From UHGV virus genome UHGV-0132372: a stretch of DNA of 36,038 nucleotides, one strand, 5' to 3'. Both the position numbers and the translations under genes were made by a program. Each line of letters begins with the position of its first letter. Positions within the stretch are counted from its first letter, which is position 1. The notes below the pieces were generated by a model. The model did no database searches. It saw only the letters and a list, made by a program, of their open reading frames with translations, and was not told the DNA's origin. Below are positions 3,127-35,988 of this stretch, piece after piece. Source of the stretch: a virus.

Positions 3127-3714
3127 TCAGAAAGGAGGGTAATCGTTCTGGCTGTAACCATAATCATCTGCATGATTCTGGCTTACGTTTTTAGAGCGAT
3201 TGTCTTTATCTTTGAGATTGGCAACCATGTTGGCGATAGTTTCTGGTTGCTTGCCTTCTGCCTTTTCTTTAAGGGTTTGACCTGTTTGTGCAATAAACGG
3301 GATGCGTATTTCCATCTGGTAGCTGTCTGCGCCAGTCTTTTTGTTTGTGGTTAATACTTTCTGAAGCACTAACCCGATTTTCTTTCCATGAAATTCAGGT
3401 GCAACAAATTTACTGGCGGAAACCATATGCTGCGTTAATTGTCCAATCCCGGCACACCCCATCATGGCGTGAACGACATTTGCGCCAAATTTGTTTTCCG
3501 TTCCGTCATTTTTCTGAACACAGACGCTAAGATATTGGATTTTACGTCCGTCGTCGGATTCGCCAGAAAACTCAATAAATTTGGCTCCTTTTTCTGATTG
3601 CTTTAGTTCTGCTTCAGTAATGGTAATGATATGAGCGCCAGTTTCGTTAATAAAACCACCTTGCCCTGCGGTCAGTGCTGCTTCTTCGTTATAAGTAAAA
3701 ATCACGTTGCTCAT
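3127..3714 (-). CDS. SSB-like single-strand binding protein (DUF669-like), partner of the Sak4-type ATPase
   Basis: ATGA overlap with the upstream ATPase gene; acidic C-terminal tail ...DDYGYSQNDYPPF resembles the SSB C-terminal tip; location is where the Red/Erf module sits in lambdoid phages. Confidence 0.55.
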   Translation of the reverse strand: MSNVIFTYNEEAALTAGQGGFINETGAHIITITEAELKQSEKGAKFIEFSGESDDGRKIQYLSVCVQKNDGTENKFGANVVHAMMGCAGIGQLTQHMVSASKFVAPEFHGKKIGLVLQKVLTTNKKTGADSYQMEIRIPFIAQTGQTLKEKAEGKQPETIANMVANLKDKDNRSKNVSQNHADDYGYSQNDYPPF

Positions 3715-4391
3715 GCGGCGTTTTCCTTAATTTGATGAACATTATTGATGCCGTAGTAATCACAAACAGTGGCATCGACGAAAGAGAGATCGTTATCAAT
3801 CTCATTGGAATCAAACATTCCCATTGGGGATTTAACAGTGTCTGCACCGTTGTTTTTCGTGGTGAAAAAGAACTGGTCATCGCGGGTAAGAGTGCGAAGA
3901 ACTATAGTAAACATGCCTTCGACAGTGATTTTCTCGTCCAGCATTTTGCCGATAGTTTTCATTTTCACGCGCCCCATAGGGGTTTCTTCGGTGTGCGCAA
4001 GAAAATAGACTCTCAGGTCATCAGGTGCATCCTGTGCAGCCTTAATCACCTCCCATGCGTGGCGGCCTATCTCAGTAAATTTATCAAACGATTTTTCTTC
4101 TGAGCGGCGCATAAACTCATTGCTCATCACATACTGGAAGTCATCAACAATAACGATTCTTTTCCCGTATTCGTGAGCACGCTTAATTACGGCAACTATT
4201 ACGTCCCATTTGTCAGTGGTAACTACGGTTCCTTTTTTTGCTCTGGCATCCCATGCCAGCCATTCTTTTGATTTAAATGGTAGCGGCTTGCCTATTGGTT
4301 TTATAAGTATTGCTTCCTCTGGATTGATATTTCTCATGCTGGTTGATTTTCCGGTGCCAGACTCACCGAGTATTAATGTCGCAGTTCCCAT
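3711..4391 (-). CDS. Sak4-like RecA-family recombination ATPase (AAA_24-like)
   Basis: Walker A GESGTGKST near the N-terminus; ~226 aa; GAGGTGA RBS; sits in the recombination slot of the pL operon. Confidence 0.7.
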   Translation of the reverse strand: MGTATLILGESGTGKSTSMRNINPEEAILIKPIGKPLPFKSKEWLAWDARAKKGTVVTTDKWDVIVAVIKRAHEYGKRIVIVDDFQYVMSNEFMRRSEEKSFDKFTEIGRHAWEVIKAAQDAPDDLRVYFLAHTEETPMGRVKMKTIGKMLDEKITVEGMFTIVLRTLTRDDQFFFTTKNNGADTVKSPMGMFDSNEIDNDLSFVDATVCDYYGINNVHQIKENAA

Positions 4392-4698: not shown

Positions 4699-4837
4699 TT
4701 TTTGGAACTCCTGGCTGATTAAGTACGTCGATGAGTCGTTTCCATCCGTCACGTAATTTACGGGTGATTCGTTCAAGTAAAGATTCATTTAATTGGAAGG
4801 CACCCATGCGAGCGCCTCCCGCGATTGCGTAAATCAT
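4691..4837 (-). CDS. cIII: CIII-like regulator (FtsH inhibitor)
   Basis: Not in the ORF track (48 aa). AAGGAA RBS; translation MIYAIAGGARMGAFQLNESLLERITRKLRDGWKRLIDVLNQPGVPKNG matches the lambda CIII core ESLLERITRKLRDGWKRLID.LNQPGVPKNG. Confidence 0.8.
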   Translation of the reverse strand: MIYAIAGGARMGAFQLNESLLERITRKLRDGWKRLIDVLNQPGVPKNG

Positions 4838-4861
4838 GGGTGGTTCCTTATGTTGGTTTTA

Positions 4862-5830
4862 TTAGTAGGTTATTTTTGTTGCGAATACTTCGCCTTTTAC
4901 GATGGCTGTTATGATATTTTTAGCAACATCTTCTGATGCGCCAACCTTGATAAGGTCAGCAAGTATTTTGTTATTTACTTCTTTCCGGTGAGCTTTATCC
5001 TTTGCTCTACACTCTTCTTCTTCCTTGATTCTTTTTTCTTCTGCTATTCTGGCTTGCTCTTTTGCTTCAGCCTCGCGCCGGATTCGTTCAGCCTCCTCCT
5101 GTGCTTTTCGGCGTTCTGCTTCAATTGCCGCCTGCTTTTCTCTTTCAGCTCGTTCTGCTGCCTCTTTTGCTTCGCGCTGTGCTCGTTGCTCGGCTTCAAT
5201 GCGTTCACGCTCTGCACGTTCCGCTGCGGCCTTAGCTTCTGCTTCTCGCCTTGCTGCTGCTTCAATTTCGGCTTTTGCCTTTGCTTCGGCTTCTGCTCTG
5301 GCTTTCTCTTCAGCTTCTCTTTTTAAGCGTTCTTCATGCTCTCGCTTTTCCTGCTCCGCTTTGAGTCTTGCCTCTTCTCTTTGGCGGTCAAATTCGCGAT
5401 CCATCAAAATAGCTATTTCATGGTCAGACTCAATTTGCTTTGCGAGAGCTTCAGCTGCTGCCTTAGCTTCTTCTTCGGCTTTAATCCGTGCCTGTTCCTC
5501 CTCATAATCAGTAAGAGGCTGGCGTGCCTTGGATTTCAGCTCATCAAGGCGATCACGCACTGTCTTGCGGTTGGCATCAATTAGCTTTGGAATTTCCTTC
5601 AGTTCAGCAACAAGGTCTTTTCCAAGACCATCGAGATATGTTTTCGTCTGCGCAACTTTATACGCCAGAGAAGCGATCTCCTTTCTGCCCTTTGCCGTTG
5701 TGATATCAGGCACAAAGGACATAACTTCACGTTCAACCTTTTGAAGGATTTCTTCAATCTGGTCGGCAGACTGAAATACAGTCATTGCATTTGCTTTTTC
5801 AATAACAACTAAATCTGTTACTTCACTCAT
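4862..5830 (-). CDS. coiled-coil protein with a long Glu/Ala/Arg/Lys-rich low-complexity core (322 aa)
   Basis: GGAGGA RBS before the ATG at 5830 (the ORF-track start at 5884 is probably an upstream extension); ~180 aa of EAKAKAEAE/RREAE repeats between a globular N-terminal domain and a short C-terminal domain. Confidence 0.6.
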   Translation of the reverse strand: MSEVTDLVVIEKANAMTVFQSADQIEEILQKVEREVMSFVPDITTAKGRKEIASLAYKVAQTKTYLDGLGKDLVAELKEIPKLIDANRKTVRDRLDELKSKARQPLTDYEEEQARIKAEEEAKAAAEALAKQIESDHEIAILMDREFDRQREEARLKAEQEKREHEERLKREAEEKARAEAEAKAKAEIEAAARREAEAKAAAERAERERIEAEQRAQREAKEAAERAEREKQAAIEAERRKAQEEAERIRREAEAKEQARIAEEKRIKEEEECRAKDKAHRKEVNNKILADLIKVGASEDVAKNIITAIVKGEVFATKITY

Positions 5831-9731: not shown

Positions 9732-9752
9732 CTGCTTTCTATGGAGTTAATT

Positions 9753-10553
9753 ATGGCAAAAAAACCTACACCAGACCAGGTAAAAAAGATTCGTTCCGGC
9801 ATTACCAAGAAAATACGGTTTGAGGTTTTCAAGCGCGATGGCTTCAAATGCCAGTACTGTGGGAGTTCTGCGCCAGACGTCATCCTTCATGTCGACCATA
9901 TCAACCCAGTTAGCAAGGGTGGCGATAACGACATGATGAACCTTATTACTTCTTGCGATAGTTGTAATGGCGGGAAAAGCGACAAACTGCTCAGCGATAA
10001 CTCAATAATGGAAAAGCAAAGGCAGCAACTCCAGGAACTTAATACCAAGCGAGAGCAACTGGAGATGATGATCAAGTGGCGAGATGGTCTTAAGAGCCTG
10101 AAAGACGATGTTGTTGATATTGTCGCTACCAAAATTGACGACTGCATTGCGCCATTTACTGTTAATGACAATGGGCGAAAATCTATCAAGAGATGGCTTC
10201 GAATATATAAGCTTGAAGAAATCCTCGATGCGATTGAGATTGCTGCAGACAAAAAACTCACCCAAGAAATAACCCATGAGCTTACTGGTGAATTCTTTGA
10301 GTACATCCCTCGCATAGCAGCGACAAAAAGAAAACCGCCAAAAGAACAAAGGATTCTATACATCAGAGGAATCCTTAAAAACCGCATATATATCAATCAA
10401 AACCATGTAATGAGTTATCTCAAGGCATGGCTTTCATACGACTTAGATCTCGATGAACTTACTGAGTTTGCGAAAACAGTACCTAACTGGACAACGTTCA
10501 AGGAGTGGGTATCTGAACGCATTCGTGAAGCTCAGGAAGAACTCCCGTACTAA
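9753..10553 (+). CDS. HNH endonuclease-domain protein (N-terminal HNH, unknown C-terminal domain)
   Basis: Motif FKCQYCGSSAPDVILHVDHINPVSKGGDNDMMNLITSCDSCN; GGAG RBS before the ATG at 9753 (alternative ATG at 9741); sits where lambda has the start of O. Confidence 0.65.
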   Translation: MAKKPTPDQVKKIRSGITKKIRFEVFKRDGFKCQYCGSSAPDVILHVDHINPVSKGGDNDMMNLITSCDSCNGGKSDKLLSDNSIMEKQRQQLQELNTKREQLEMMIKWRDGLKSLKDDVVDIVATKIDDCIAPFTVNDNGRKSIKRWLRIYKLEEILDAIEIAADKKLTQEITHELTGEFFEYIPRIAATKRKPPKEQRILYIRGILKNRIYINQNHVMSYLKAWLSYDLDLDELTEFAKTVPNWTTFKEWVSERIREAQEELPY

Positions 10554-10564
10554 AGGTGGACAAA

Positions 10565-11452
10565 ATGGCACGTTCAAGAAATATCAAACCAGGCTTTTTC
10601 ACCAATGATGAATTAGCTGAGTGTTCTCCATATGCCCGTCTCCTTTTTGCCGGGTTATGGACTATTGCTGACAAAGAAGGGCGGTTGGATGATCGCCCAA
10701 AGAAAATTAAAGCAATGGTACTGCCTTTCGATGATGTGGACTGCAATGATCTGCTTCAGCAACTTCACAGTCACAAATTCATCAATCGATATCAGGTAAA
10801 TGGCGGCTCATATATCCAAATCAATAACTGGAAAAAGCACCAGAACCCTCACTGCAAAGAAGCGGCCAGTGAGATACCAGAACCAGTAGAGAATAATAAC
10901 AGCATCCTGCAAGTACAGTGCAAGGACGATAAAGAGGAAGAGAAGGAGGATACAGAATCACTTCAAGTCATTGAAAACAATGAAGCACCAGAAAAGCACC
11001 ATGCAAGTACAGTGCAAGAACAAGTTGAGAACAGTTTAAATCCTGCTGATTCCCTTAACCTGATTCCTGATTCCCTTAACCTGATTCCTGATTCCCTTTC
11101 TAACACCCAAGCCGCTGACGCGACTTGTGAAGGGGGTGGGGCTGATGTCCATAAAATTTCAAGTCGCTATGCATTCGAAGGAAATATCGTTCGGTTAAAC
11201 CACAAGGATTACGAAGCATGGAAGCGCCTGTATCCGAACATTGACCTGAATTACGAGCTGGAAAGGCTGGATATCGAATTTAGCCATGAGAAGCCAAAGA
11301 ACTGGTTTATCACTGCCAGCCAGAAACTCAGCTACCAGAACAAGCAGGCGTTATCCAGACCGGTACGCAAGGTTGCTAATGGACTTAAGGCTGAAAACTT
11401 TGCCACCAAGGATTACGGACAAACTGAAATGCCTTCATGGGCGCAGGAGTGA
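10565..11452 (+). CDS. putative replication initiator / replisome organiser
   Basis: Position between cII and the DnaC-like loader; AAAGGTGGA RBS; internal iteron-like DNA repeats encode a DSLNLIPDSLNLIPDSL linker. Confidence 0.55.
   Translation: MARSRNIKPGFFTNDELAECSPYARLLFAGLWTIADKEGRLDDRPKKIKAMVLPFDDVDCNDLLQQLHSHKFINRYQVNGGSYIQINNWKKHQNPHCKEAASEIPEPVENNNSILQVQCKDDKEEEKEDTESLQVIENNEAPEKHHASTVQEQVENSLNPADSLNLIPDSLNLIPDSLSNTQAADATCEGGGADVHKISSRYAFEGNIVRLNHKDYEAWKRLYPNIDLNYELERLDIEFSHEKPKNWFITASQKLSYQNKQALSRPVRKVANGLKAENFATKDYGQTEMPSWAQE
11047..11095 (+). repeat. iteron-like direct repeats (TGATTCC x5; 21-bp unit TGATTCCCTTAACCTGATTCC x2) - candidate ori
   Basis: Direct repeats visible in the sequence, inside the initiator gene as in lambda ori within O. 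Confidence 0.5.
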
Positions 11453-11454
11453 AC

Positions 11455-12300
11455 ATGACGCTGGATGAAAAGATCTCCCAACTGGAGAAAAAACTTGCAG
11501 AATTGAGTTCTCCGCCAATTGCTATCGAGCATACAGCTGTAGAAATTGGCACTGGCATCTGTGAAAAACACGGTGAGTTTGAGCAGCGTAACCGTTACTC
11601 GACTGGGCCAATTAAGTTTGCCTCAAGACCTAGCGAATGCCCGGAATGCATGAGAGATGAGCTTATTCGGCTACAGGCAGAGAAGATTAAAATCGACGAA
11701 GAATCACGTAAGCGCAATGTCGAATTTCTGTTGAATAATCTTGATATTCCTGAACGATTCAAGGGTTGCACACTACAGAACTACGAGCCAGTCAACGACG
11801 ATGCAAAGAGAGTGCTCAGGGTGTGTCAGGCATACGCCAGCAAATGGCCTGAGAGGTTACAGAAAGGCGGTGGGCTGGTTATGTGTGGAAAGCCTGGTAC
11901 TGGAAAGAATCATCTTGCACTGGCTATCGCCCGGCACGCAATTACGGAACATCAAAGCTCAGCTATTTTCACAACGGCGCTGAAAATTGCCAGAGAATAT
12001 AAATCAACATGGTCGAAAAACTCCACCCGCACTGAGGATGAAGTGATCCGACAGTTCACTAAACCTGACCTGCTAATTATCGATGAGGTTGGTGTGCAGT
12101 TTGGAAGCGAGGCGGAAAAGATGATCATGTTCGAAATCATCAACACCCGCTACGAGCGCATGAAGCCAACAATCCTGATTAGTAATCAGAGCAAAGATGA
12201 ACTTTCGGCATTCATTGGTGAGCGTGTTATTGACAGGATGAATGATGGCGGAGGGTGCACTCTTGCGTTTACATGGGATAGTTACAGGAGCAGATCGTGA
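11455..12300 (+). CDS. DnaC-like helicase loader (IstB-like AAA+ ATPase)
   Basis: Walker A GKPGTGKNHLALAIA and Walker B LLIIDEVG; GGAGTGA RBS before the ATG at 11455 (the ORF track starts at 11437). Confidence 0.8.
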   Translation: MTLDEKISQLEKKLAELSSPPIAIEHTAVEIGTGICEKHGEFEQRNRYSTGPIKFASRPSECPECMRDELIRLQAEKIKIDEESRKRNVEFLLNNLDIPERFKGCTLQNYEPVNDDAKRVLRVCQAYASKWPERLQKGGGLVMCGKPGTGKNHLALAIARHAITEHQSSAIFTTALKIAREYKSTWSKNSTRTEDEVIRQFTKPDLLIIDEVGVQFGSEAEKMIMFEIINTRYERMKPTILISNQSKDELSAFIGERVIDRMNDGGGCTLAFTWDSYRSRS

Positions 12301-13704: not shown

Positions 13705-13871
13705 TTGACCAAAATCGAAGTTACGAACAAGAAAGCGTCGAGCGAGCTTTAACGTGCGCTAACTGCGGTCAGAAGCTGCATGTGCTGGAAGTTCACGTGT
13801 GTGAGCACTGCTGCGCAGAACTGATGAGCGATCCGAATAGCTCAATGTACGAGGAAGAAGACGATGAGTGA
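13701..13871 (+). CDS. ninF: NinF (GTG start)
   Basis: Not in the ORF track (56 aa); [49 protein letters not shown] matches lambda NinF; GTGA overlap with the ninE stop. Confidence 0.7.
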
Positions 13872-14373
13872 TGTTAAAGAAAAAGATATCCCCGGCTTTG
13901 AGGGTATATATAAAGTAACTGAAAATGGAGACATCATTTCATGCCGTAAATCAAAAAAATTATCTCATGGCATTAAACCAGGAGGATATGCATTTGTCGG
14001 TCTGTATCCAGGTGGCGGGAAAAGACCATCATATAAAATGGTTCACAGAATTGTTGCAGAAGTATTTATTGATAACCCAGATGGCAAACCGGAAGTTAAT
14101 CACAAGGATGGAAATAAACTTAATAATAAAGTTGAAAATCTTGAGTGGGTAACGCGAACAGAAAATGCGAAACATGGATTTGATTCCGGATTGCTTGTTC
14201 ATGGGTTTAATCATCACTTCTGCAAACTAACGCCAGAACAAGTGAAATCAATATATAAATCAAAAGGCAAATACAGAGATATAGCCAAAGAATTTGGTGT
14301 TTGTGCGCAGACAGTGTGCAACATAAAAAACAAATCAGCGTACCGACGTTTTTTGGAGGGGATTGATGTTTAG
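13864..14373 (+). CDS. HNH homing endonuclease (NUMOD4/HNH_3-type) inserted in the nin region
   Basis: IPGFEGIYKVTENG...VHRIVAEVF...NHKDGNKLNNKVENLEWVTRTEN; AT-rich compared with its flanks; paralogous to 26602..27186. Confidence 0.8.
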   Translation: MSDVKEKDIPGFEGIYKVTENGDIISCRKSKKLSHGIKPGGYAFVGLYPGGGKRPSYKMVHRIVAEVFIDNPDGKPEVNHKDGNKLNNKVENLEWVTRTENAKHGFDSGLLVHGFNHHFCKLTPEQVKSIYKSKGKYRDIAKEFGVCAQTVCNIKNKSAYRRFLEGIDV

Positions 14374-15000: not shown

Positions 15001-15185
15001 ACGCCACAATTCAAACGATACCAGAGCTTCTTATCCAGACACGAGGCAATCAGACCGAAGTGGCGAGGATGCTTTCCTGCGCAAGAGGAACAGTGCTCAA
15101 GTACAACCGAGACAGCAAAGGCGAGCGTCACGTAATAGTTAACGGCGTCCTGATGGTCAAACAGGGCAAGAGGGGAAGACGATGA
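14997..15185 (+). CDS. ninH: NinH
   Basis: TIPELLIQTRGNQTEVARMLSCARGTVLKYNRD...HVIVNGVLMV matches lambda NinH; ATGA overlap with rusA. Confidence 0.8.
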   Translation: MNATIQTIPELLIQTRGNQTEVARMLSCARGTVLKYNRDSKGERHVIVNGVLMVKQGKRGRR

Positions 15186-15670
15186 GCATAAGAGAAATAA
15201 ACCTCACCAAAGAACAGCACGATTGGCTGAATGGCTGGCTTGAACTGTGGGGCGCATGGGTTTATTCAGGTCGTCTGGAAAAGCGCATGAGCAGCGTAAT
15301 AGCGAAGTTCATGGAGAGCGTAGAGCCGGGAAGAGTTATGACAAGGCCAATGTGTAATGATGATGATGGAATGTTGATTTCTCAGGTCGTCGATTCCGTC
15401 ATGTGCATTGACAAGAAAGCCTTTGGAATCCTCCTCAGCTACTACGCTCATGGCTCTTCCAAGCACGCCATTGCATCTTACTATCATCGCGTCGCAAGAC
15501 CTCGCAAGATGTTATGCCGGGGCGGCGGGCGCATTCAAAAACCATCGCTCGCAACCTGTCGCCGGGAAGTTGACGAAATCCTCAATGCCTCGTTGTTTAT
15601 GATTTATCCGGTTCTGGATAGTGCGTTTAAAAACCGGAAACGTGTAGAGAAAATTAAACATGTAGCATAG
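15182..15670 (+). CDS. late-gene antiterminator Q (non-lambda Q family)
   Basis: Position between ninH and the lysis cassette; Cys-containing ~160-aa protein that I recall as resembling the Phage_antitermQ type; followed by a tR'-like terminator. Confidence 0.7.
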   Translation: MSIREINLTKEQHDWLNGWLELWGAWVYSGRLEKRMSSVIAKFMESVEPGRVMTRPMCNDDDGMLISQVVDSVMCIDKKAFGILLSYYAHGSSKHAIASYYHRVARPRKMLCRGGGRIQKPSLATCRREVDEILNASLFMIYPVLDSAFKNRKRVEKIKHVA

Positions 15671-15715
15671 AACGTGTTGATATCATTGAGCAAATGAGCA
15701 ACACTATTCGCATAA

Positions 15716-15758
15716 GCTGCCGTTAGTGACTCTTAAGTTGCAACGGTGGCTTTTTTTT
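15716..15758 (+). terminator. tR'-like terminator of the short late leader transcript
   Basis: Hairpin followed by T8; downstream context CTTGCACAACAGGTAAGAGCATTGA resembles the lambda sequence just after tR' as I recall it. Confidence 0.5.
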
Positions 15759-16009
15759 GCTTGCACAACAGGTAAGAGCATTGAACCCGCAGACCTCGCG
15801 GAATTGGTGAAAGGTGCCGCGCAGTGCAATTATCGTTGTGGTGAATGCGCAGGCTGATGCGCTAACTTATCAGCTAGATGGTGAGGTAAAGGCTCACCAT
15901 GGCGACGACGGGTAGTTCATTTACATGCCGGAAAACACAGCACCGGTCACCACACACCAAATACATACCAGGACCATAAGAGCAAAAGCTCAACGCACTA
16001 CCCTCTATT

Positions 16010-16035
16010 GCCCACCGCGCCGTGGGCTTTTTTAT
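16010..16035 (+). terminator. stem-loop with U-tract upstream of the holin gene
   Basis: GCCCAC-CGCGCC-GTGGGC hairpin followed by TTTTTTATT. Confidence 0.45.
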
Positions 16036-16141
16036 TGCAGGCCGCAGATATCATTTTCAGATGCCATGTAGCAATCAGAGTCTGACGGCCTTTCCCCTAC
16101 AAACACACACAGCACCATCCGGAAAATCGGAGGTGAGGCCT

Positions 16142-16465
16142 ATGAAAATGCCATACAAACAAGATTTCATCGCTGCGCTACTTGCCGCCAAGGAGCAGGG
16201 TATTGGTGCAATGCTGGCTTTTATCATGGCGTATCTGCGTGGTCGCTATAACGGCGGCGCGGTAACAAAAACGCTAATTGATGCGCTGATGTGCGCGATG
16301 ATTGCCTGGTTCGTTCGTGACCTTCTGGACTTTATCGGCCTGAGCAGCAACCTCGCCTACATAGCCAGCGTCTTTATTGGATACATCGGCACCGATTCGA
16401 TCGGCAATCTTATTAAAAAACTTGCAGCAAAAAAGGCGGGAGTTGACGATGCAAACCAGTCCTGA
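16142..16465 (+). CDS. S: holin S (class I, lambda-type, dual-start Met1-Lys2-Met3)
   Basis: [39 protein letters not shown]...WFVRDLLDF matches lambda S; GGAGGTGA RBS; the ORF-track start at 16022 is an upstream extension. Confidence 0.9.
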
Positions 16466-16898
16466 CGGAATTGCTCTGATAAAAAAATTTGAAGGTTGTC
16501 GGCTGACTGCTTACCCCGACCCCGGAACGGGAGATGCGCCGTGGACCATCGGCTATGGCTGGACCCATCCGGTTGACGGAAAGCCAGTAAAGCGCGGTAT
16601 GACTATCGACCAGCAAACCGCTGACAGGCTTCTGAAAACAGGGCTTGTTGGTTATGAGAATGACGTGCTGAAAGTTGTCAGGGTGAAGCTGACACAAGGC
16701 CAGTTCGACGCACTGGTGTCGTTCGCTTACAACGTTGGGTCGCGTGCTCTTTCCACATCTACACTGCTGAAAAAGCTGAATGCTGGCGATATAAAAGGCG
16801 CGGCAGATGAATTTCTGCGCTGGAATAAATCAGGCGGAAAGGTGATGCCGGGGCTCACGAATCGCCGCAAGGCAGAGCGAGCTCTGTTCCTGTCATGA
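16449..16898 (+). CDS. endolysin, T4/P22-type lysozyme (GH24)
   Basis: [15 protein letters not shown]...WTIGYG...[13 protein letters not shown] motif set; start overlaps the holin 3' end. Confidence 0.85.
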
Positions 16899-17362
16899 TT
16901 AGCGCACTGGTTAAGCGTTACTGGCTGCAGTTGCTGGTGCTGGCGTTAATCGGCGCACTGGCTTTCTTCGTGAACCACTACCGCGACAACGCCATCACTT
17001 ACAGAGACCAGCGCGATAAGGCCACTGAGAAACTCCTCCTGGCGACCGCCACCATTAAAGACATGCAGACCCGCCAGCGTGATGTCGCTGCACTGGATGC
17101 CAAATACACCGGAGAACTGGCTGATGCGAAAGAAACCATTGAGCGTCTGCATAGCGATGTCATTGCTGGCCGTAAGCGGCTGCAAGTCGCCGCCACCTGT
17201 GCAAAGTCAACGACCGGAGCCAGCAGCATGGGCGATGGAGAAAGCCCAAGACTTACAGCAGATGCTGAACTCAATTATTACCGTCTACGAAGTGGAATCG
17301 ACAGGATAACCGCGCAGGTTAACTACCTGCAGGAGTACATCAGGACGCAATGCCTGAAATAA
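16895..17362 (+). CDS. Rz: Rz i-spanin
   Basis: N-terminal TM segment then coiled-coil; follows the endolysin with an ATGA overlap; contains the embedded Rz1 frame. Confidence 0.8.
17124..17309 (+). CDS. Rz1: Rz1 o-spanin lipoprotein (embedded in Rz, +1 frame)
   Basis: [20 protein letters not shown] lipobox followed by a Pro-rich segment; GGAG RBS. Confidence 0.7.
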
Positions 17363-17394
17363 TTTTTTTGCAAATCACAAAGTCCATTTAATGA

Positions 17395-17417
17395 GCCTCG
17401 CGATGCGGGGCTTTTTG
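17395..17417 (+). terminator. intrinsic terminator after the lysis cassette
   Basis: GCCTCGC-GAT-GCGGGGC hairpin followed by TTTTT. Confidence 0.5.
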
Positions 17418-17563
17418 CAATAAATGCGTACCGCAACGCATGTTTTTTACACCGAACCTGCCCCTTTGGAATGGGCCTTTGAGGATACCAGTTAGTGCTG
17501 GCGAGCCTCGGTGGGCTGGTTTCCTGTGCGGCAAAGGTTCATTTCAAAGAGTAGGTACACGCT

Positions 17564-18061
17564 ATGAAATCATTAACCCTCTTCAATCAACCAATTCGTA
17601 TCGGTGAAGATGGCATGATCTGCCTCACTGATATGTGGAAAGCCAGTGGTAAAAGTGAATCTGAATCGCCTTACCACTACCTGCGAAACAAGCAGACCAA
17701 AGAGTTCTTAGCCGAGTTGGAGAAAAACCACGAATCTGTGGTTTTTACTGAGCGCGGTGTACACGGTGGAACATATGGCGGGAAGTTTGTTGCTTACGAT
17801 TATGCGGCTTGGTTAAACCCCGGGTTCAAGTACGCGGCCTATAAAGTCCTCGATGACTACTTCACCGGAGAACTTCAGCATCGCAACAGCTTAAGTGCGC
17901 AGCTCAACATGAAATGTCATGAGTTTGACCAGAAGAAAGACATGGCGAGCTTCTGCGGACAAGGGCTGGCAGCATGGCGCTATACGAAGCCAGTGTTGGT
18001 CGCTGAGATTAACTCCCTGGCTAACCAGCTGCAGATTACGATCCCCGGGCTTCCGGGATGA
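17564..18061 (+). CDS. KilA-N domain protein
   Basis: N-terminus ...IRIGEDGMICLTDMWKASGK...PYHYLRNKQTKEFLAELEK...GGTYGGKFVAYDYAAWLNPGFK fits the KilA-N/APSES-like pattern. Confidence 0.65.
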   Translation: MKSLTLFNQPIRIGEDGMICLTDMWKASGKSESESPYHYLRNKQTKEFLAELEKNHESVVFTERGVHGGTYGGKFVAYDYAAWLNPGFKYAAYKVLDDYFTGELQHRNSLSAQLNMKCHEFDQKKDMASFCGQGLAAWRYTKPVLVAEINSLANQLQITIPGLPG

Positions 18062-18327
18062 GTGATCGTGTCATTGAATGCGCCTCCAGAGCGGGGCGCG
18101 ACTTCTCAGAGTTCATGAAAGGCGAGAAGGGCATGATGGAAGCATTGGCCTCGGTGGATGAGTTTGGCGAGCAGCTGCGCCTCAACGGCTGTGTCAATCA
18201 TCACTTTGTTAGCTACATGATGCGGAACTCGATCATGCAGGCATTCATGGACATGGCAAAAGCCGAGAGGAAAGAAGAGCGCCGGCGTAAGCGAGCGGAA
18301 GCAAAAGCAAAAGCAAAAGTGAAGTAG
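18058..18327 (+). CDS. hypothetical protein with basic coiled C-terminus (89 aa)
   Basis: ATGA coupling to the KilA-N gene. Confidence 0.45.
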   Translation: MSDRVIECASRAGRDFSEFMKGEKGMMEALASVDEFGEQLRLNGCVNHHFVSYMMRNSIMQAFMDMAKAERKEERRRKRAEAKAKAKVK

Positions 18328-18621
18328 CCATTACAAAGCCTATCTACGGATGGGCTTGATAATGAAACCAAAATTTATTCTTGGCAACCAGTTACGGCAG
18401 TACCACGAAGCAACCCAAGCCAGTAAGTGGGGAAATAACACTGGCAGCCACTGAAAGATGAACCTCCTGCCTTATGGCAAAAAAGATTATTTGTGGTGGC
18501 GGACTGATGGAAAGACATCGGTTATTGCAGAGACCATTCAATGAGTGGTCTCGACAATGGCTTATACCCTACACGGGATAACTTAACTGATATCCCTTTT
18601 AACGGATAAACGGAGCCAACA

Positions 18622-18864
18622 ATGGCAGAGATTATTCCCATGACTGAAGAACAGAAATTCCAGTTAGAGATTTACAAGCTGGTCATGAACCAGAACGCAG
18701 CCGCAGAAGAAGCATTTCAATTCATTGGCACTGACGAACTGAAGCTTGAGCTATTTAAAATTCACTTCCAGTCAGGTGGCGCTAATTCAGATATCACGAC
18801 CCGAACTATCGAAGCGGTGCGTAAATCGAGGGAAGCGTTAGACCTGTTCACCACCGGAGCATGA
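18622..18864 (+). CDS. hypothetical protein (80 aa), first gene of the HslV-like cassette
   Basis: GGAG RBS; stop overlaps the downstream start region (ATGATATG). Confidence 0.5.
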   Translation: MAEIIPMTEEQKFQLEIYKLVMNQNAAAEEAFQFIGTDELKLELFKIHFQSGGANSDITTRTIEAVRKSREALDLFTTGA

Positions 18865-18865
18865 T

Positions 18866-19354
18866 ATGACCACTATTGCATGGGATGGAAAGACCCTGGC
18901 ATCTGACACCCAGGCATCATCTGGTGATGTTGTGTGTTCGTATACAGAACAAAAGATTTACACACCGCCAGAATCTGGGTGGGAGGTTTGCGGCAGTAAA
19001 GTGGTTGCATTAGGTTGTTCTGGTGATTGCGGCGCGGAGATGGAATTGCAGGAACTGCTTAAGAACAACCTGACGTATGCATCAGAATTTCTCCCGACAT
19101 TCTCTTTCACCGCGCTTGCTATCATCGGTGCTGGTCGTGCTTACATCATCTCAAAAGAGAAAGGCGAAACGCGGGCGAGTATTTCGCGACAGGTTGAACC
19201 GTATGCCATTGGTAGTGGTTGGCTGATTGCTCGCACAGCCATGCACTGCGGCAAAAATGCGAGAGAAGCGGTACAAGTCGCAATTGATATTGACTGCTAT
19301 TCCGGCGGCAGCGTTGATTCGTTCCCCGCTGGGAAGCAAACAGAAGGGAAATAA
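18866..19354 (+). CDS. HslV/proteasome-beta-like Ntn-hydrolase (peptidase T1-like)
   Basis: N-terminal [18 protein letters not shown] with Thr directly after Met, as in HslV [22 protein letters not shown]; GxSGDxxAExxL and AIGSG blocks align with HslV GFAGGTADAFTL and AIGSGG; 162 aa. Confidence 0.65.
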
Positions 19355-19359
19355 TCAAT

Positions 19360-19848
19360 ATGGCAGCACCAAAGGGCAACCGATTTTGGGAGGCCCGCAG
19401 TAGTCATGGGCGAAATCCTAAATTCGAATCGCCTGAGGCGCTGTGGGCTGCTTGTTGTGAATACTTCGAGTGGGCTGATGATAACCCACTATGGGAGGGT
19501 AAGGTATTTTCATATCAGGGAGAAATAATTAAGGCTAATGTCCCTAAGATGCGAGCCATGACTATTTCAGGATTGTGTACCTTCCTTGATATCACCAGGC
19601 AAACGTGGGGAACCTTCCGGTCAATGGAAGGTTTTTCTGACGTCACATCACGAGCGGAAGACATCATCTACGACCAGAAATTCTCTGGCGCAGCCGCTGA
19701 CCTTCTCAACGCTAACATCATCGCCCGTGATTTGGGCCTCAAAGAGCAGTCGCAAGTTGAAGACGTGACACCTGATAAGGGAGATCGCGATAAGCGGCGC
19801 TCTCGTATCAAGGAGCTATTCAACCGTGGAACTGGACGCGATTCTTGA
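19360..19848 (+). CDS. terminase small subunit (P22 gp3-like)
   Basis: [38 protein letters not shown]... matches the P22 gp3 N-terminus as recalled; immediately upstream of the large terminase. Confidence 0.85.
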
Positions 19849-21322
19849 TAACCTGAGCGACGAAGAGCAAATCGAGTTGCTCGAGCTACTCGAAGAAGAA
19901 GAGAACTACCGGAACACACACCTGCTATATGAATTTACGCCATACAGCAAACAGCGTGAGTTCATCGACGCCGGACATGACTATCCAGAGCGCTGTTTTA
20001 TGGCTGGTAACCAGCTTGGTAAGTCATTTACTGGTGCTGCTGAAGTCGCGTTTCACCTTACCGGGCGTTATCCGGGCACAAAAGGCTATCCTGCTGATGG
20101 TAAATATGGCGGTGAGTGGAAAGGTAAGCGTTTCTATGAGCCTGTTGTCTTCTGGATTGGCGGCGAGACAAACGAGACGGTAACCAAAACGACTCAACGC
20201 ATCCTGTGCGGTCGTATTGAAGAGAATGATGAGCCGGGCTACGGTTCAATACCGAAAGAGGACATCATTAGCTGGAAGAAGTCTCCTTTCTTTCCGAACC
20301 TTGTTGATCATCTTCTGGTTAAGCATCACACGACTGATGGCGTTGAAGATGGCATTTCAATCTGCTACTTCAAACCATACTCGCAAGGCCGCGCTCGCTG
20401 GCAGGGTGACACAATCCACGGCGTGTGGTTTGACGAAGAGCCACCATACAGCATTTATGGCGAAGGTCTTACCCGTACCAACAAATACGGGCAATTCTCA
20501 ATTCTGACGTTTTCCCCGCTGATGGGGATGTCTGACGTTGTTACCAAGTTCCTGAAGAATCCCAGCAAGTCGCAGAAAGTGGTCAACATGACCATCTATG
20601 ACGCTGAGCACTATACCGACGAGCAGAAAGAGCAAATCATCGCATCCTATCCTGAGCATGAGAGAGAGGCGCGTGCTCGCGGTATTCCTACGATGGGTAG
20701 TGGTCGAATCTTCCAGATACCGGAAGAGACTATTAAGTGTCAGCCGTTCGAGTGTCCTGATCACTTCTACGTCATCAATGCAATGGACTTCGGATGGGAT
20801 CACCCACAGGCACACATCCAGCTTTGGTGGGATAAAGACGAGGACGTGATTTATCTTTCTCGCGTCTGGAAGGCCAAACAGAAGAAGGCGACAGAGGCAT
20901 GGAGTGCTGTTAAAGCATGGAGCAAAAACACCCCTACGGCTTGGCCTCATGACGGGCATCAGCACGAAAAGGGAGGCGGCGCTCAGCTCAAGGAACAATA
21001 CGCCGACGCTGGGTTCGATATGTTGCCAGATCATGCAACATGGCCTGATGGAGGTAATGCGGTCGAACCCGGGATAGCAGAGATACGCGACATGATGCTC
21101 GACGGTCGTTTCAAGGTATTTAACACCTGCGAGCCATTCTTTGAAGAGTTTCGCCTGTATCACCGCGATGAGAACGGGAAGATCGTCAAGCTAAATGACG
21201 ACATCCTTTCTGCTGTTCGCTATGGCTACATGATGAGGCGTTTTGCAATACAGATGCGAGACATCAAAGATCCTAAAGAGATTGATTACTCAAGCTACAA
21301 CATACCTTGCGGAGTTGGATGA
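19826..21322 (+). CDS. terminase large subunit
   Basis: Walker [10 protein letters not shown]; ~498 aa; between the small terminase and the portal. Confidence 0.85.
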
Positions 21323-33798: not shown

Positions 33799-34083
33799 AA
33801 GCTTTCCTACAACAAGTCCGAACATTAAGAACGCAAAGTTCAATAAATCTCTGTCCATAAATCCTCCTGTTTACCAAAACTATATCAAACTTTAACGCAA
33901 TGCTGCGCAACTTAAGTGACTTTCAGGTTGATAACAGACACTCTTTTTTGCATGATTCCTTTAGACCATCACAATTGATGAAGAATCATGAAAAGAAGAA
34001 CTCTTCTAAAGTCTTTGCTCGGCCTGACGTCACTCTTACCAGTTAAGTTTGCAGCATCTCAAAACCTGCAAGGTAAAAGTATA

Positions 34084-35988
34084 ATGTCAGACATTACACC
34101 CAATGTTGTAGTGAGTATGCCTTCGCAACTCTTCACTATGGCTCGTTCTTTTAAAGCCGTAGCTAATGGTAAAATTTATATCGGTAAAATTGACACTGAC
34201 CCGGTAAATCCTGAAAACCAGATTCAGGTTTATGTGGAAAATGAAGACGGTTCTCACGTTCCTGTTTCGCAACCAATCATCATTAACGCTGCTGGATATC
34301 CGGTATATAACGGACAGATTGCCAAGTTCGTTACTGTGCAAGGCCATTCCATGGCTGTTTATGATGCGTATGGGGCGCAACAATTCTATTTTCCAAACGT
34401 ATTGAAGTATGATCCAGATCAATTAGAAAGCAGGTTGTCGGAAACTAATAGTACAGTAATGATATCTGGAGTAACCGCATCAAAAATAGCAAGTAATGTT
34501 ATTGCAACAGAATATCTTGAGTCGCCAAATGTATATGATGTGTTTGTTACGTATGGGCAGTCAAATAGCGCAGGTGAGGCTATTTTATCTGGCGATACGT
34601 CAGGCTTTCCTGCCGCTCTGCCGAAATCACTAATGTATGATTTTAGTGATGGAGCAATAAAGCCAATTATACAGAATGTGGTTAGTTCTTCTGGCGTTGC
34701 ATCATCTGGACATGCATGGGGGGAATTCGAGAATGAATGGTATCGCCTTAGCGGGCGCGGTTCAGTGGAGGTACACTGCGGCCGTGGCGCAACTACCATT
34801 GCACAGCTATCAAAAGGGACCACATACTACACGCTGTTGGTAAATGCCGTGGCGTCAGCTAAACAGGCAATGATTGCCGCTGGTTTGCCTGTCGGTAAAA
34901 CGTACGTGATGTACCACCAGGGTGAGTCGGATATGACGGCAGGGACAACATACAATGCTTATAGAGACAGCTTTATAGCCTTGATAGATGATCTGAAAAC
35001 CGATATTAATTTTGATTTATTTTGTAATTTTACCGTTGGTTGCCCGGGGAACCGAACGGAAGAATCATGGGCTGCTATTCAAAATGCGCAAAGGTGGGTT
35101 TGTAATAGCAAGACTAACGCTGTGACAGTATTTGACGGTTGCCCTTCATTTTTAAAAGGCGATGGCAATATTGGCACTACTGATGGAGGCGTTCACTATA
35201 CGCAACGCGGTTACAATACAATGGGGCGAGAAGGTGCCAGAGGATTATGGTCATTAGTTAAAGGTGGGGCAAGCAATAAAACCTCAACCGATTTAGCACA
35301 ATATTCAAATTTTGCCCCACCGTGGACAAGGGCGAAATTAGTCGCCGGTACTATTAAATACAGCAATGATAACGCTAAATGGGTTCTTTTATCTAAAGAA
35401 GTAAACAGTGAATGGAAAGTTTCCAATGCCCATAAATTAGTTGTTTCTGCTGATGGGGAATATTTTTCTGTAGAAATTGCAGACAATGCCGAAAACTGGT
35501 TTTATGCCGCCGCGGGCGTCGACCGCGCTACAGCTATAACAGGTGTCAGGTCCTACGCAGAACCTCTTCGTGTGGGAAATGCATTCACATTAAAAATTAC
35601 TATGCATGCCGACGTTTCTTTCCTTGTTAATACAAAAACAGGAGTCATTCGTTATGGAAGACCGCCTTCAGGCTCTGGTGTCCCAGAGTGGATTAGAAAT
35701 AATATCTCTGTTTCTGTGGTGAGTGCTGGCATCGTGGAAATAACGCATGGCCGCACTGCAACAATGCCATCAGCAACATATTACGCCACTAGTGACGGAA
35801 CATTATCTGCGGCAAATGTATCTGTATATGCCGGGTCAACCACAACGACAAGAGTTTATTGTGATAAAGCAAACACTGATAATCCCTGGGTGGTTGTTAC
35901 ACTTAGAGATTTACTAATTACTCCTGCCAACATGCAACATTACGATATTTCAATTAACTTTAACGGAATTTATGCGCCATCCGCATGA
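34084..35988 (+). CDS. tailspike: P22-type head-binding domain fused to an SGNH/SASA-like esterase receptor domain
   Basis: N-terminus [12 protein letters not shown]...[23 protein letters not shown]...[13 protein letters not shown]...NVLKYDPDQ matches the P22 gp9 head-binding domain; downstream GQSNSAG and HQGESDM motifs; start placed at ATG 34084 (the ORF track extends to 33988). Confidence 0.8.

Follow-up and report, generated by a model that had tools for sequence, protein, structure and literature searches.

A predicted proteasome-like threonine peptidase gene in a variable slot upstream of the terminase genes of a P22-like phage

Genes and features of the locus

We analysed the virus genome UHGV-0132372, a stretch of 36,038 nucleotides that we refer to as the window, with a focus on an open reading frame (ORF) of 162 amino acids (aa) just upstream of the terminase genes. 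An earlier note, made from the sequence alone, had proposed that this ORF encodes a phage HslV/proteasome-like N-terminal-nucleophile (Ntn) hydrolase with an N-terminal catalytic Thr. The window represents a P22-like (Lederbergvirus-type) temperate phage genome or prophage, and the ORF lies among the following features.

15182..17362, + strand: upstream late-operon context from the Q antiterminator to Rz (Pfam and ORFs)
15182-15670, + strand: Q antiterminator (Pfam Phage_antitermQ)
16022-17362, + strand: holin, lysozyme and Rz (Pfam Phage_holin_3_1, ORF list)
17564-18061, + strand: KilA-N protein
18058-18327, + strand: 89-aa ORF
18328-18621: gap of 294 bp
18622..18864, + strand: 80-aa DUF2560 gene (Pfam PF10834, 1.1e-43)
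18856..18859, + strand: GGAG, putative ribosome-binding site (RBS) of the peptidase gene within the end of the DUF2560 ORF, 6 nt 5' of the ATG (read directly from the sequence)
18862..18868, + strand: mosaic junction TGA-T-ATG, where homology with other P22-like phages stops
18866..19354, + strand: predicted 162-aa PPH-type proteasome-like Ntn peptidase gene, stop codon counted
19360..19848, + strand: small terminase gene of the P22 gp3 type (Pfam GP3_package 8.3e-31; PHROG 606), 5 nt past the peptidase stop

The small terminase gene is followed on the + strand by the genes for the large terminase, portal, scaffold and P22 coat protein. The coordinates given in the earlier note for the 80-aa ORF (18622-18864) and the 162-aa ORF (18866-19354), the latter with Thr after Met, were confirmed. 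The peptidase ORF opens with MTTIAWDGK, and its ATG (18866) lies 1 nt past the TGA of DUF2560 (18862-18864). An in-frame TAG is present 9 codons 5' of this ATG, and no ATG, GTG or TTG occurs between the two, so that Thr must directly follow the initiator Met. A true start further upstream, named in the earlier note as a finding that would speak against its proposal, is thereby excluded. Translational coupling from DUF2560 to the peptidase gene appears plausible, since stop and start are only 1 nt apart and GGAG is present at 18856-18859; the geometry had been described correctly. The non-coding spacer upstream of DUF2560 indeed comprises 294 bp. It contains only ORFs of ≤35 aa on the + strand and gave no Rfam match, and a scan of positions 17300-19900 against Rfam returned nothing credible (sole match GlsR20, E 0.23).

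Identification as a proteasome-like Ntn-hydrolase

The 162-aa protein was assigned to PHROG 1040, "peptidase HslV family", with an E-value of 3.7e-37 in the PHROGs search. A single-sequence phmmer search against the PDB gave no match, and only a family profile, built from 49 diverse aligned homologs, succeeded. This profile matched proteasome beta subunits with 8.1e-10 (best match the beta subunit of M. jannaschii) and HslV with 1.6e-8 to 1.8e-7. By hhalign, the match to E. coli HslV had a probability of 96% (E 2e-9). An AlphaFold2 (AF2) model calculated from the homolog alignment reached a pLDDT of 95.1 and a pTM of 0.89, and the predicted fold was the alpha-beta-beta-alpha fold of proteasome-like Ntn-hydrolases. 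The profile search and the structure prediction had both been suggested as checks, and their results, together with the PHROG assignment, supported that ORF 18866-19354 encodes a proteasome-like (MEROPS T1-type) Ntn-hydrolase with a predicted N-terminal catalytic Thr.

The ratio of non-synonymous to synonymous substitutions (dN/dS) was 0.085 in comparison to the copy in phage Dewey, which shares 90% aa and 85% nt identity. Judged by this ratio, the peptidase gene is under strong purifying selection. The gene is real and, judged from the sequence, functional, and it almost certainly codes for an active enzyme with an N-terminal threonine.

Active-site residues and their conservation

All conservation counts refer to the 49 aligned homologs. 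The following codons and segments were assigned.

18869..18871, + strand: Thr2 codon, predicted nucleophile after removal of Met1; Thr in 49/49; corresponds to Thr1
18905..18907, + strand: Asp14 codon; invariant (49/49); aligned to HslV D17 (Asp17)
18953..18955, + strand: Lys30 codon; invariant (49/49); aligned to HslV K33 (Lys33)
18962..19006, + strand: residues 33-47 with an insertion of about 12 residues, predicted beta-hairpin; gaps in short homologs; insertion relative to HslV by hhalign; DSSP strands 40-41 and 44-45
19013..19027, + strand: G50-C-S-G53-D54; position 50 Gly in 30/49 and Ala in 19/49, G53 in 49/49; oxyanion-hole region A-G47-x-x-G-D of proteasome beta
19211..19219, + strand: G116-S117-G118; G116 and G118 in 49/49 each, position 117 Ser/Thr in 47/49; corresponds to proteasome G-S129-G and HslV G-S124-G (HMMER alignment)
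19292..19306, + strand: D143-C-Y-S146-G147; D143 in 48/49, position 146 Ser/Thr in 47/49, G147 in 47/49; corresponds to Asp166/Ser169/Gly170; aligned to ERDTFSG of the archaeal beta subunit

The complete set of proteasome beta residues Thr1/Asp17/Lys33/Gly47/Ser129/Asp166/Ser169 is thus represented by T2/D14/K30/G50-G53/S117/D143/S146. No propeptide is present, as the catalytic Thr directly follows the initiator Met. The same arrangement was seen among 245 retrieved relatives, of which 228 start with MT and 6 with MS, the rest being mostly mis-called starts or fragments.

The earlier note had listed three motifs as common to the phage protein and E. coli HslV. Two of them, A-x-D-x-Q-A-[ST] and AIGSG, are indeed shared; the Gly-Ala spacing of the first block is one residue longer in HslV. 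The third, GxSGDxxAExxL, is shared only loosely: HslV has GFAGGTADAFTL at this place, and the phage block fits A-G47-x-x-G-D of proteasome beta better. The insertion of about 12 residues within residues 33-47 is missing from HslV and from family members of about 140 aa.

Two further segments were near-invariant among homologs of only 30-40% identity: the block of residues 1-14 (18866-18907), with the W6-D7-G8 turn, and the H3-H4 block A..AM.CGK.A.EAV..A...D.YSGG at residues 121-148 (19226-19309). Their conservation exceeds the needs of catalysis and may reflect an oligomer or partner interface.

Comparison to HslV and other proteasome-type systems

In bacteria, HslV and the ATPase HslU make up the ATP-dependent protease HslUV, in which HslV forms a dodecamer of two hexameric rings. 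The C-terminal tails of HslU enter pockets between HslV subunits that are formed by F54 and F57 (helix H1), A79/K80 (helix H2) and Q114 (PMC6429459). In the AF2 model of the phage protein, strands 48-53 and 81-88 are separated by one helix only (57-66), and hhalign placed a gap of 15 residues (12+3) opposite HslV residues ~70-86, where HslV has H2. According to model and alignment, helix H2 is missing in the 162-aa protein. The positions aligned to the H1/Q114 pocket are M59, Q62 and S106, unlike the pocket residues of HslV. HslV K28, which we take to be involved in HslU binding, aligned to C24, a variable position. No HslU-like gene was found in the window, as had been claimed; its only AAA-type ORFs code for a DnaC/IstB-like loader (11437-12300) and an AAA_24 protein (3711-4391). 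Pairing with host HslU, which the earlier note had considered, is unlikely in the canonical mode, because H2, which lines the pocket for the HslU tail, is deleted and the H1 pocket positions are unmatched.

The phage protein resembles HslV (ClpQ) in size, in the A-x-D-x-Q-A-T and AIGSG motifs, and in an MTTI... N-terminus that is matured in HslV by Met removal only. It differs by an identity of only ~20%, by the lack of H2, of the residues of the HslU-tail pocket and of an adjacent hslU gene, and by falling short of the curated models for HslV and the proteasome in Pfam and NCBIfam. Its D166/S169-type motif D-x-Y-S-G-G is closer to proteasome beta than to HslV. The beta subunit of the 20S proteasome gave the best profile match (M. 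jannaschii, E 8e-10) and has the same full residue set including Ser129/Asp166/Ser169, whereas the phage protein lacks the propeptide, the alpha-subunit partner, H2 and the C-terminal elements and is shorter by ~40-60 residues. BPH (beta-proteobacteria proteasome homologue), which forms heptameric double rings, and Anbu are likewise stand-alone proteins without a propeptide or a known ATPase partner, but they are cellular, comprise ~185-230 aa and keep both H1 and H2.

Probable membership in the PPH family and distribution

The PPH family of phage proteasome-like proteins was described from sequence data in 2021 and was placed as radiating from the BPH cluster (Fuchs et al., PMC8665760). PPH and RPC are alone in lacking helix H2, and they have no propeptide (Fuchs et al., PMC8665760). 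ORF 18866-19354 probably belongs to the PPH clade (published representative WP_042125023.1), since the missing H2, the absent propeptide, the catalytic set and the phage habitat all agree with the published description. The likeness extends to Thr1/Asp17/Lys33/Gly47, to the absence of C-terminal S12/H5 and to the occurrence in tailed phages and in prophages of Proteobacteria. The published description gives a length of ~140 aa in contrast to 162 aa here, and the excess consists of the ~12-residue hairpin (33-47) and a 4-residue insertion near residue 100; no extra domain is present. Lengths varied among the 245 relatives, with 51 proteins of 140-149 aa, 57 of 150-159 aa and 60 of 160-169 aa.

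At E ≤ 1e-3, the family comprised 1320 representatives of 50%-identity clusters, and 41 viral structural relatives were found in BFVD. By tblastn, relatives were detected in 183 phage GenBank records, many of them labelled "peptidase HslV family". These records span SPN3US-like, EL-like and Erwinia jumbo phages, Jedunavirus, Jerseyvirus, Kagunavirus-like phages, Xanthomonas Autographiviridae, and Vibrio and Aeromonas phages. The jumbo phages, Jerseyvirus and Autographiviridae among them are strictly virulent, and the hosts of nearly all 183 records are Proteobacteria. All metagenomic contexts that we inspected were phage-like. Matches in Microbacterium phages were not counted as family members, as they covered the AIGSG region only (23% of the query).

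The novelty suggested for the gene had been overstated, since PHROGs already names the family and Fuchs et al. described PPH. What is new here is a member with a short hairpin insertion and its location in a P22-like phage, the slot between DUF2560 and the terminase genes being absent from the PPH paper (PMC8665760); the family itself is already known and experimentally uncharacterised. HslV-like genes without an HslU gene have also been reported for a jumbo phage (PMC7823757). A bioRxiv preprint lists gp116 of phage RAY as an "HslVU protease family" accessory protein among nuclear and cytoplasmic proteins, while the legend to Figure 4 of the same preprint gives it as an HslU-superfamily homolog among nuclear-localised proteins. 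The genome announcement of phage Dewey does not discuss its peptidase gene.

The peptidase gene occupies a variable slot downstream of DUF2560

By megablast, the DUF2560 part of the locus matched 194 phage records as well as 898 of the 5426 complete E. coli genomes. DUF2560 together with the peptidase gene was present only in one phage (Dewey) and 10 E. coli genomes (among them MS 115-1 and the 0H-series strains), which leaves ~890 E. coli genomes and ~190 phage records with DUF2560 but no peptidase gene. We aligned the junction of the window with those of Kapi1, HK620, SEN22 and Dewey. The sequences were identical up to ...ACCGGAGCATGA and unrelated directly after, and the megablast match ended at query position 535-542. 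The break in homology between the phages is exactly at the DUF2560 stop codon, which marks the peptidase gene as accessory and horizontally mobile; the slot that it fills, from DUF2560 to the small terminase gene, varies in content. SEN22 has no gene in this slot, while HK620 and Kapi1 carry the unrelated 59-aa hkbN gene, which likewise starts 1 nt past the DUF2560 stop. The shared junction of hkbN shows that the tight spacing belongs to the slot and not to the gene pair. In phage Dewey, a 96-aa ORF (L001 3540-3827) lies between DUF2560 and the PPH gene; the slot can therefore hold more than one accessory gene.

DUF2560 was never found beside distant peptidase homologs in the contexts inspected. 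We concluded that DUF2560 belongs to the backbone of P22-like phages and adjoins the peptidase gene without being its obligatory partner. The earlier note had treated the two genes as a cassette and had proposed a survey of their co-occurrence. In favour of a functional pair are the distance of 1 nt between stop and start, the RBS within the upstream ORF and the 100% identity of the DUF2560-peptidase stretch of E. coli MS 115-1 and the 0H-series strains to the window. Against it stand the presence of the peptidase gene in only 10 of the 898 DUF2560-bearing E. coli genomes, the many genomes and phage records with DUF2560 alone, the intervening ORF in Dewey, the use of the same junction by hkbN and the lack of a DUF2560 neighbour for any distant homolog. 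The distribution data effectively refute the cassette, to which we give next to no probability. An AF2 prediction of DUF2560 from the single sequence was uninformative (pLDDT 57) and too poor for a fold search.

The gap of 294 bp 5' of DUF2560 showed 93-97% DNA conservation over ~190 P22-like phage records. In relatives it is broken by accessory genes, namely a Gp49-family gene in phiKp_30 and, in Huey, genes that carry the label "anti-CRISPR". In the E. coli strains 0H24, 0H25 and 0H26, the identical DUF2560-peptidase pair is present on the chromosome and also on circular "plasmid" records of 29.7-39.4 kb from the same assemblies (NZ_CP081778.1, NZ_CP081694.1, NZ_CP081786.1; L010). NZ_CP081786.1 (39.4 kb), the sole record inspected in full, is a complete P22-like phage genome. 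These records are probably excised or replicating prophages that were captured by the assembly.

Genomic contexts of homologs and probable timing of expression

We inspected 16 genomic contexts of peptidase homologs, and the gene was located at the following places.

Directly before the terminase genes: the window, Dewey, L015 and L016
1.6 kb before the terminase genes: L013
Flanked by the large terminase gene and the portal gene: VLCpiS13a
Directly before holin genes: Ivi, 5sent1 and TPH05A
Directly after spanin genes: L13.2 (Xanthomonas phage) and L016
Within modules for head or tail: Gungnir39 (between the genes for the head-tail adaptor and for head closure), Jedunavirus and L014 (adjacent to the major capsid gene)
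At the annotated genome start: jumbo phages (SPN3US)
Among small ORFs close to a gene of the Acb3 family: L011
Without informative neighbours, metagenomic: the P0082 contig

In none of the 16 contexts did an unfoldase (AAA+) gene lie next to the peptidase gene. No sigma-70-like promoter was detected on the + strand between 17300 and 19900, and terminator-like matches in this region were of weak consensus only. Late, Q-dependent co-transcription of the peptidase gene with the lysis and packaging genes is proposed, because the genes are on the same strand, no promoter-like site lies between them, and homologs in unrelated phages adjoin genes for lysis, terminase or head proteins. That lysis and terminase genes recur as neighbours may have a functional reason or may simply mark permissive insertion sites.

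In the metagenomic contig SRR22388147_12038 (L015), the homolog at 4800-5246 takes the position expected for the small terminase, and no Terminase_2-type ORF was called upstream. In L011 (2982-3803 and 6001-6417), a PPH homolog of 138 aa is part of a same-strand series of small uncharacterised ORFs, ~2 kb downstream of a gene of the Acb3 family PF25187. This setting hints at an anti-defence neighbourhood.

Proposed function and alternative explanations

In our preferred explanation, to which we assign a probability of roughly 0.6, the ORF encodes a PPH-type threonine peptidase that is activated by Met removal, made late and independent of a dedicated ATPase in its action on peptides, unfolded proteins or a single target. 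The gene would be transcribed from the Q-dependent late promoter together with the lysis and packaging genes. The host methionine aminopeptidase would take off Met1, as it does for E. coli HslV, and would thereby free the alpha-amine and the hydroxyl group of the Thr for catalysis. The product would be a self-contained and probably homo-oligomeric peptidase, by analogy to what is thought for BPH and Anbu, and its substrates late in lytic growth would be peptides, unfolded proteins or a single specific protein of host or phage. Our favoured guess for its purpose is host takeover or counter-defence, in view of the sporadic occurrence of the gene, its horizontal mobility and its presence in strictly virulent phages.

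Several points weigh against this explanation. The Pfam scan of the 162-aa protein gave no match, including Proteasome PF00227, and the NCBIfam scan returned only TIGR03634 (archaeal beta subunit), whose score of 14.7 bits is below the cut-off of 224, and listed no model for HslV. Late expression is deduced from gene order only. In the literature that we searched, phage HslV/PPH proteins appear in annotation-level mentions only, and activity, oligomeric state and substrate are inferred. HslV alone is a very weak protease, and a ring peptidase without an unfoldase may have little activity on folded proteins. Proteobacteria possess HslU, and use of a host ATPase by the PPH phages that infect them may therefore be possible. 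Finally, it was noted for some homologs that the loss of H2 is maybe incompatible with stacked rings (Fuchs et al., PMC8665760).

The peptidase might instead dock on host HslU or on another AAA+ unfoldase, replace HslV or compete with it, and so redirect ATP-dependent degradation. The lack of a phage-encoded unfoldase ATPase in the window, the proteobacterial hosts of nearly all phage records and the likewise HslU-less jumbo phage (PMC7823757) would agree with this. The deletion of H2, seen as the 15-residue gap and as the single helix in the model, argues against it, as do the residues M59, Q62 and S106, which do not match the HslV pocket, and the variable C24 in place of K28; we consider such docking unlikely. 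The late-gene neighbours in unrelated phages (terminase, head, holin and spanin genes) would also suit a protease of morphogenesis or lysis whose substrate is one of the phage's own virion, scaffolding, terminase or lysis proteins. Only 10 of the 898 E. coli genomes with the DUF2560 backbone carry the gene, however, and SEN22 and the HK620/Kapi1 phages assemble without it. To our knowledge, P22 heads require no protease, and the known prohead proteases, which are conserved as part of the head module, have a different, serine-protease fold: the herpesvirus-protease-like or ClpP-like fold was not found in the phage protein, which has an Ntn/proteasome-like fold. Position itself is weak evidence, as lysis and terminase junctions are well-known insertion sites of accessory genes. 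A processing role is accordingly quite improbable. A role in capsid maturation was rejected in view of the sporadic distribution of the gene, and the statement of the earlier note that P22-type capsid assembly does not explain it holds, as most P22-like phages lack it.

Non-degradative Ntn chemistry, either site-specific transpeptidation or ligation, as by the archaeal connectase, or amidase action on a small molecule, might account for the near-invariant W6-D7-G8 and H3-H4 blocks, which catalysis leaves unexplained, and the loss of H2 may preclude the classical chamber architecture. Because the full proteasome-type peptidase set is kept, including the equivalents of Ser129/Asp166/Ser169, we regard this chemistry as very unlikely. 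The variable accessory slot of a temperate phage and the presence in a minority of prophages would fit a gene for lysogenic conversion or prophage defence that the resident prophage expresses to the advantage of its host. The upstream region lacks a promoter-like site on the + strand, the gene starts 1 nt past the stop of a late-operon gene, and PADLOC matched no defence family to the 162-aa protein at E ≤ 1. Moreover, homologs are common in strictly virulent phages (jumbo phages, Jerseyvirus, Autographiviridae), which points to a role in lytic growth rather than in lysogenic conversion; a benefit to the lysogen is highly improbable as the function of the gene.

A bolder version of the late, ATPase-independent peptidase that we prefer takes the PPH proteins as viral "mini-proteasomes" that are independent of HslU and serve a specific task as the lytic cycle ends, the adjacency to lysis and terminase genes being functional and not a bias of insertion sites. 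We hold this version to be speculative and rather doubtful. If true, it could mean the destruction of an abortive-infection or immune effector of the host that senses late proteins, or the tuning of lysis or packaging. In a variant, the PPH proteins would use a non-canonical surface, for example the W-D-G turn or the H3-H4 block, to bind an AAA+ unfoldase of the host.

Significance and other features of the window

Virus-encoded proteasome homologs have been catalogued while their function is uncharacterised, and their chamber, their need for an unfoldase and their substrates are at stake. Taken alone, the present finding adds a member and a context and no new principle. The locus does place a well-conserved PPH member in a genetically easy system, the P22-like phages of E. 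coli. Phage Dewey is in culture and forms plaques on E. coli K-12 with restored O16 antigen (PMC12243541). Entry points are this phage with its 90%-identical copy, the MS 115-1 prophage and the natural slot variants, namely SEN22 with an empty slot and HK620 and Kapi1 with hkbN. As these natural relatives differ only in the slot, the role of viral proteasome homologs becomes directly testable.

Two features elsewhere in the window were also observed. The tailspike ORF (33988-35988, + strand) combines the P22 head-binding domain PF09008 (4e-67) with the SASA carbohydrate-esterase domain PF03629 (6.6e-14), which suggests a receptor-binding protein of the O-antigen deacetylase type rather than a P22-type endorhamnosidase. 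Two HNH endonuclease ORFs on the + strand, one plain HNH and one NUMOD4-HNH, are located at 9741-10553 and 13864-14373 in the early and nin regions and are probably homing-type insertions.

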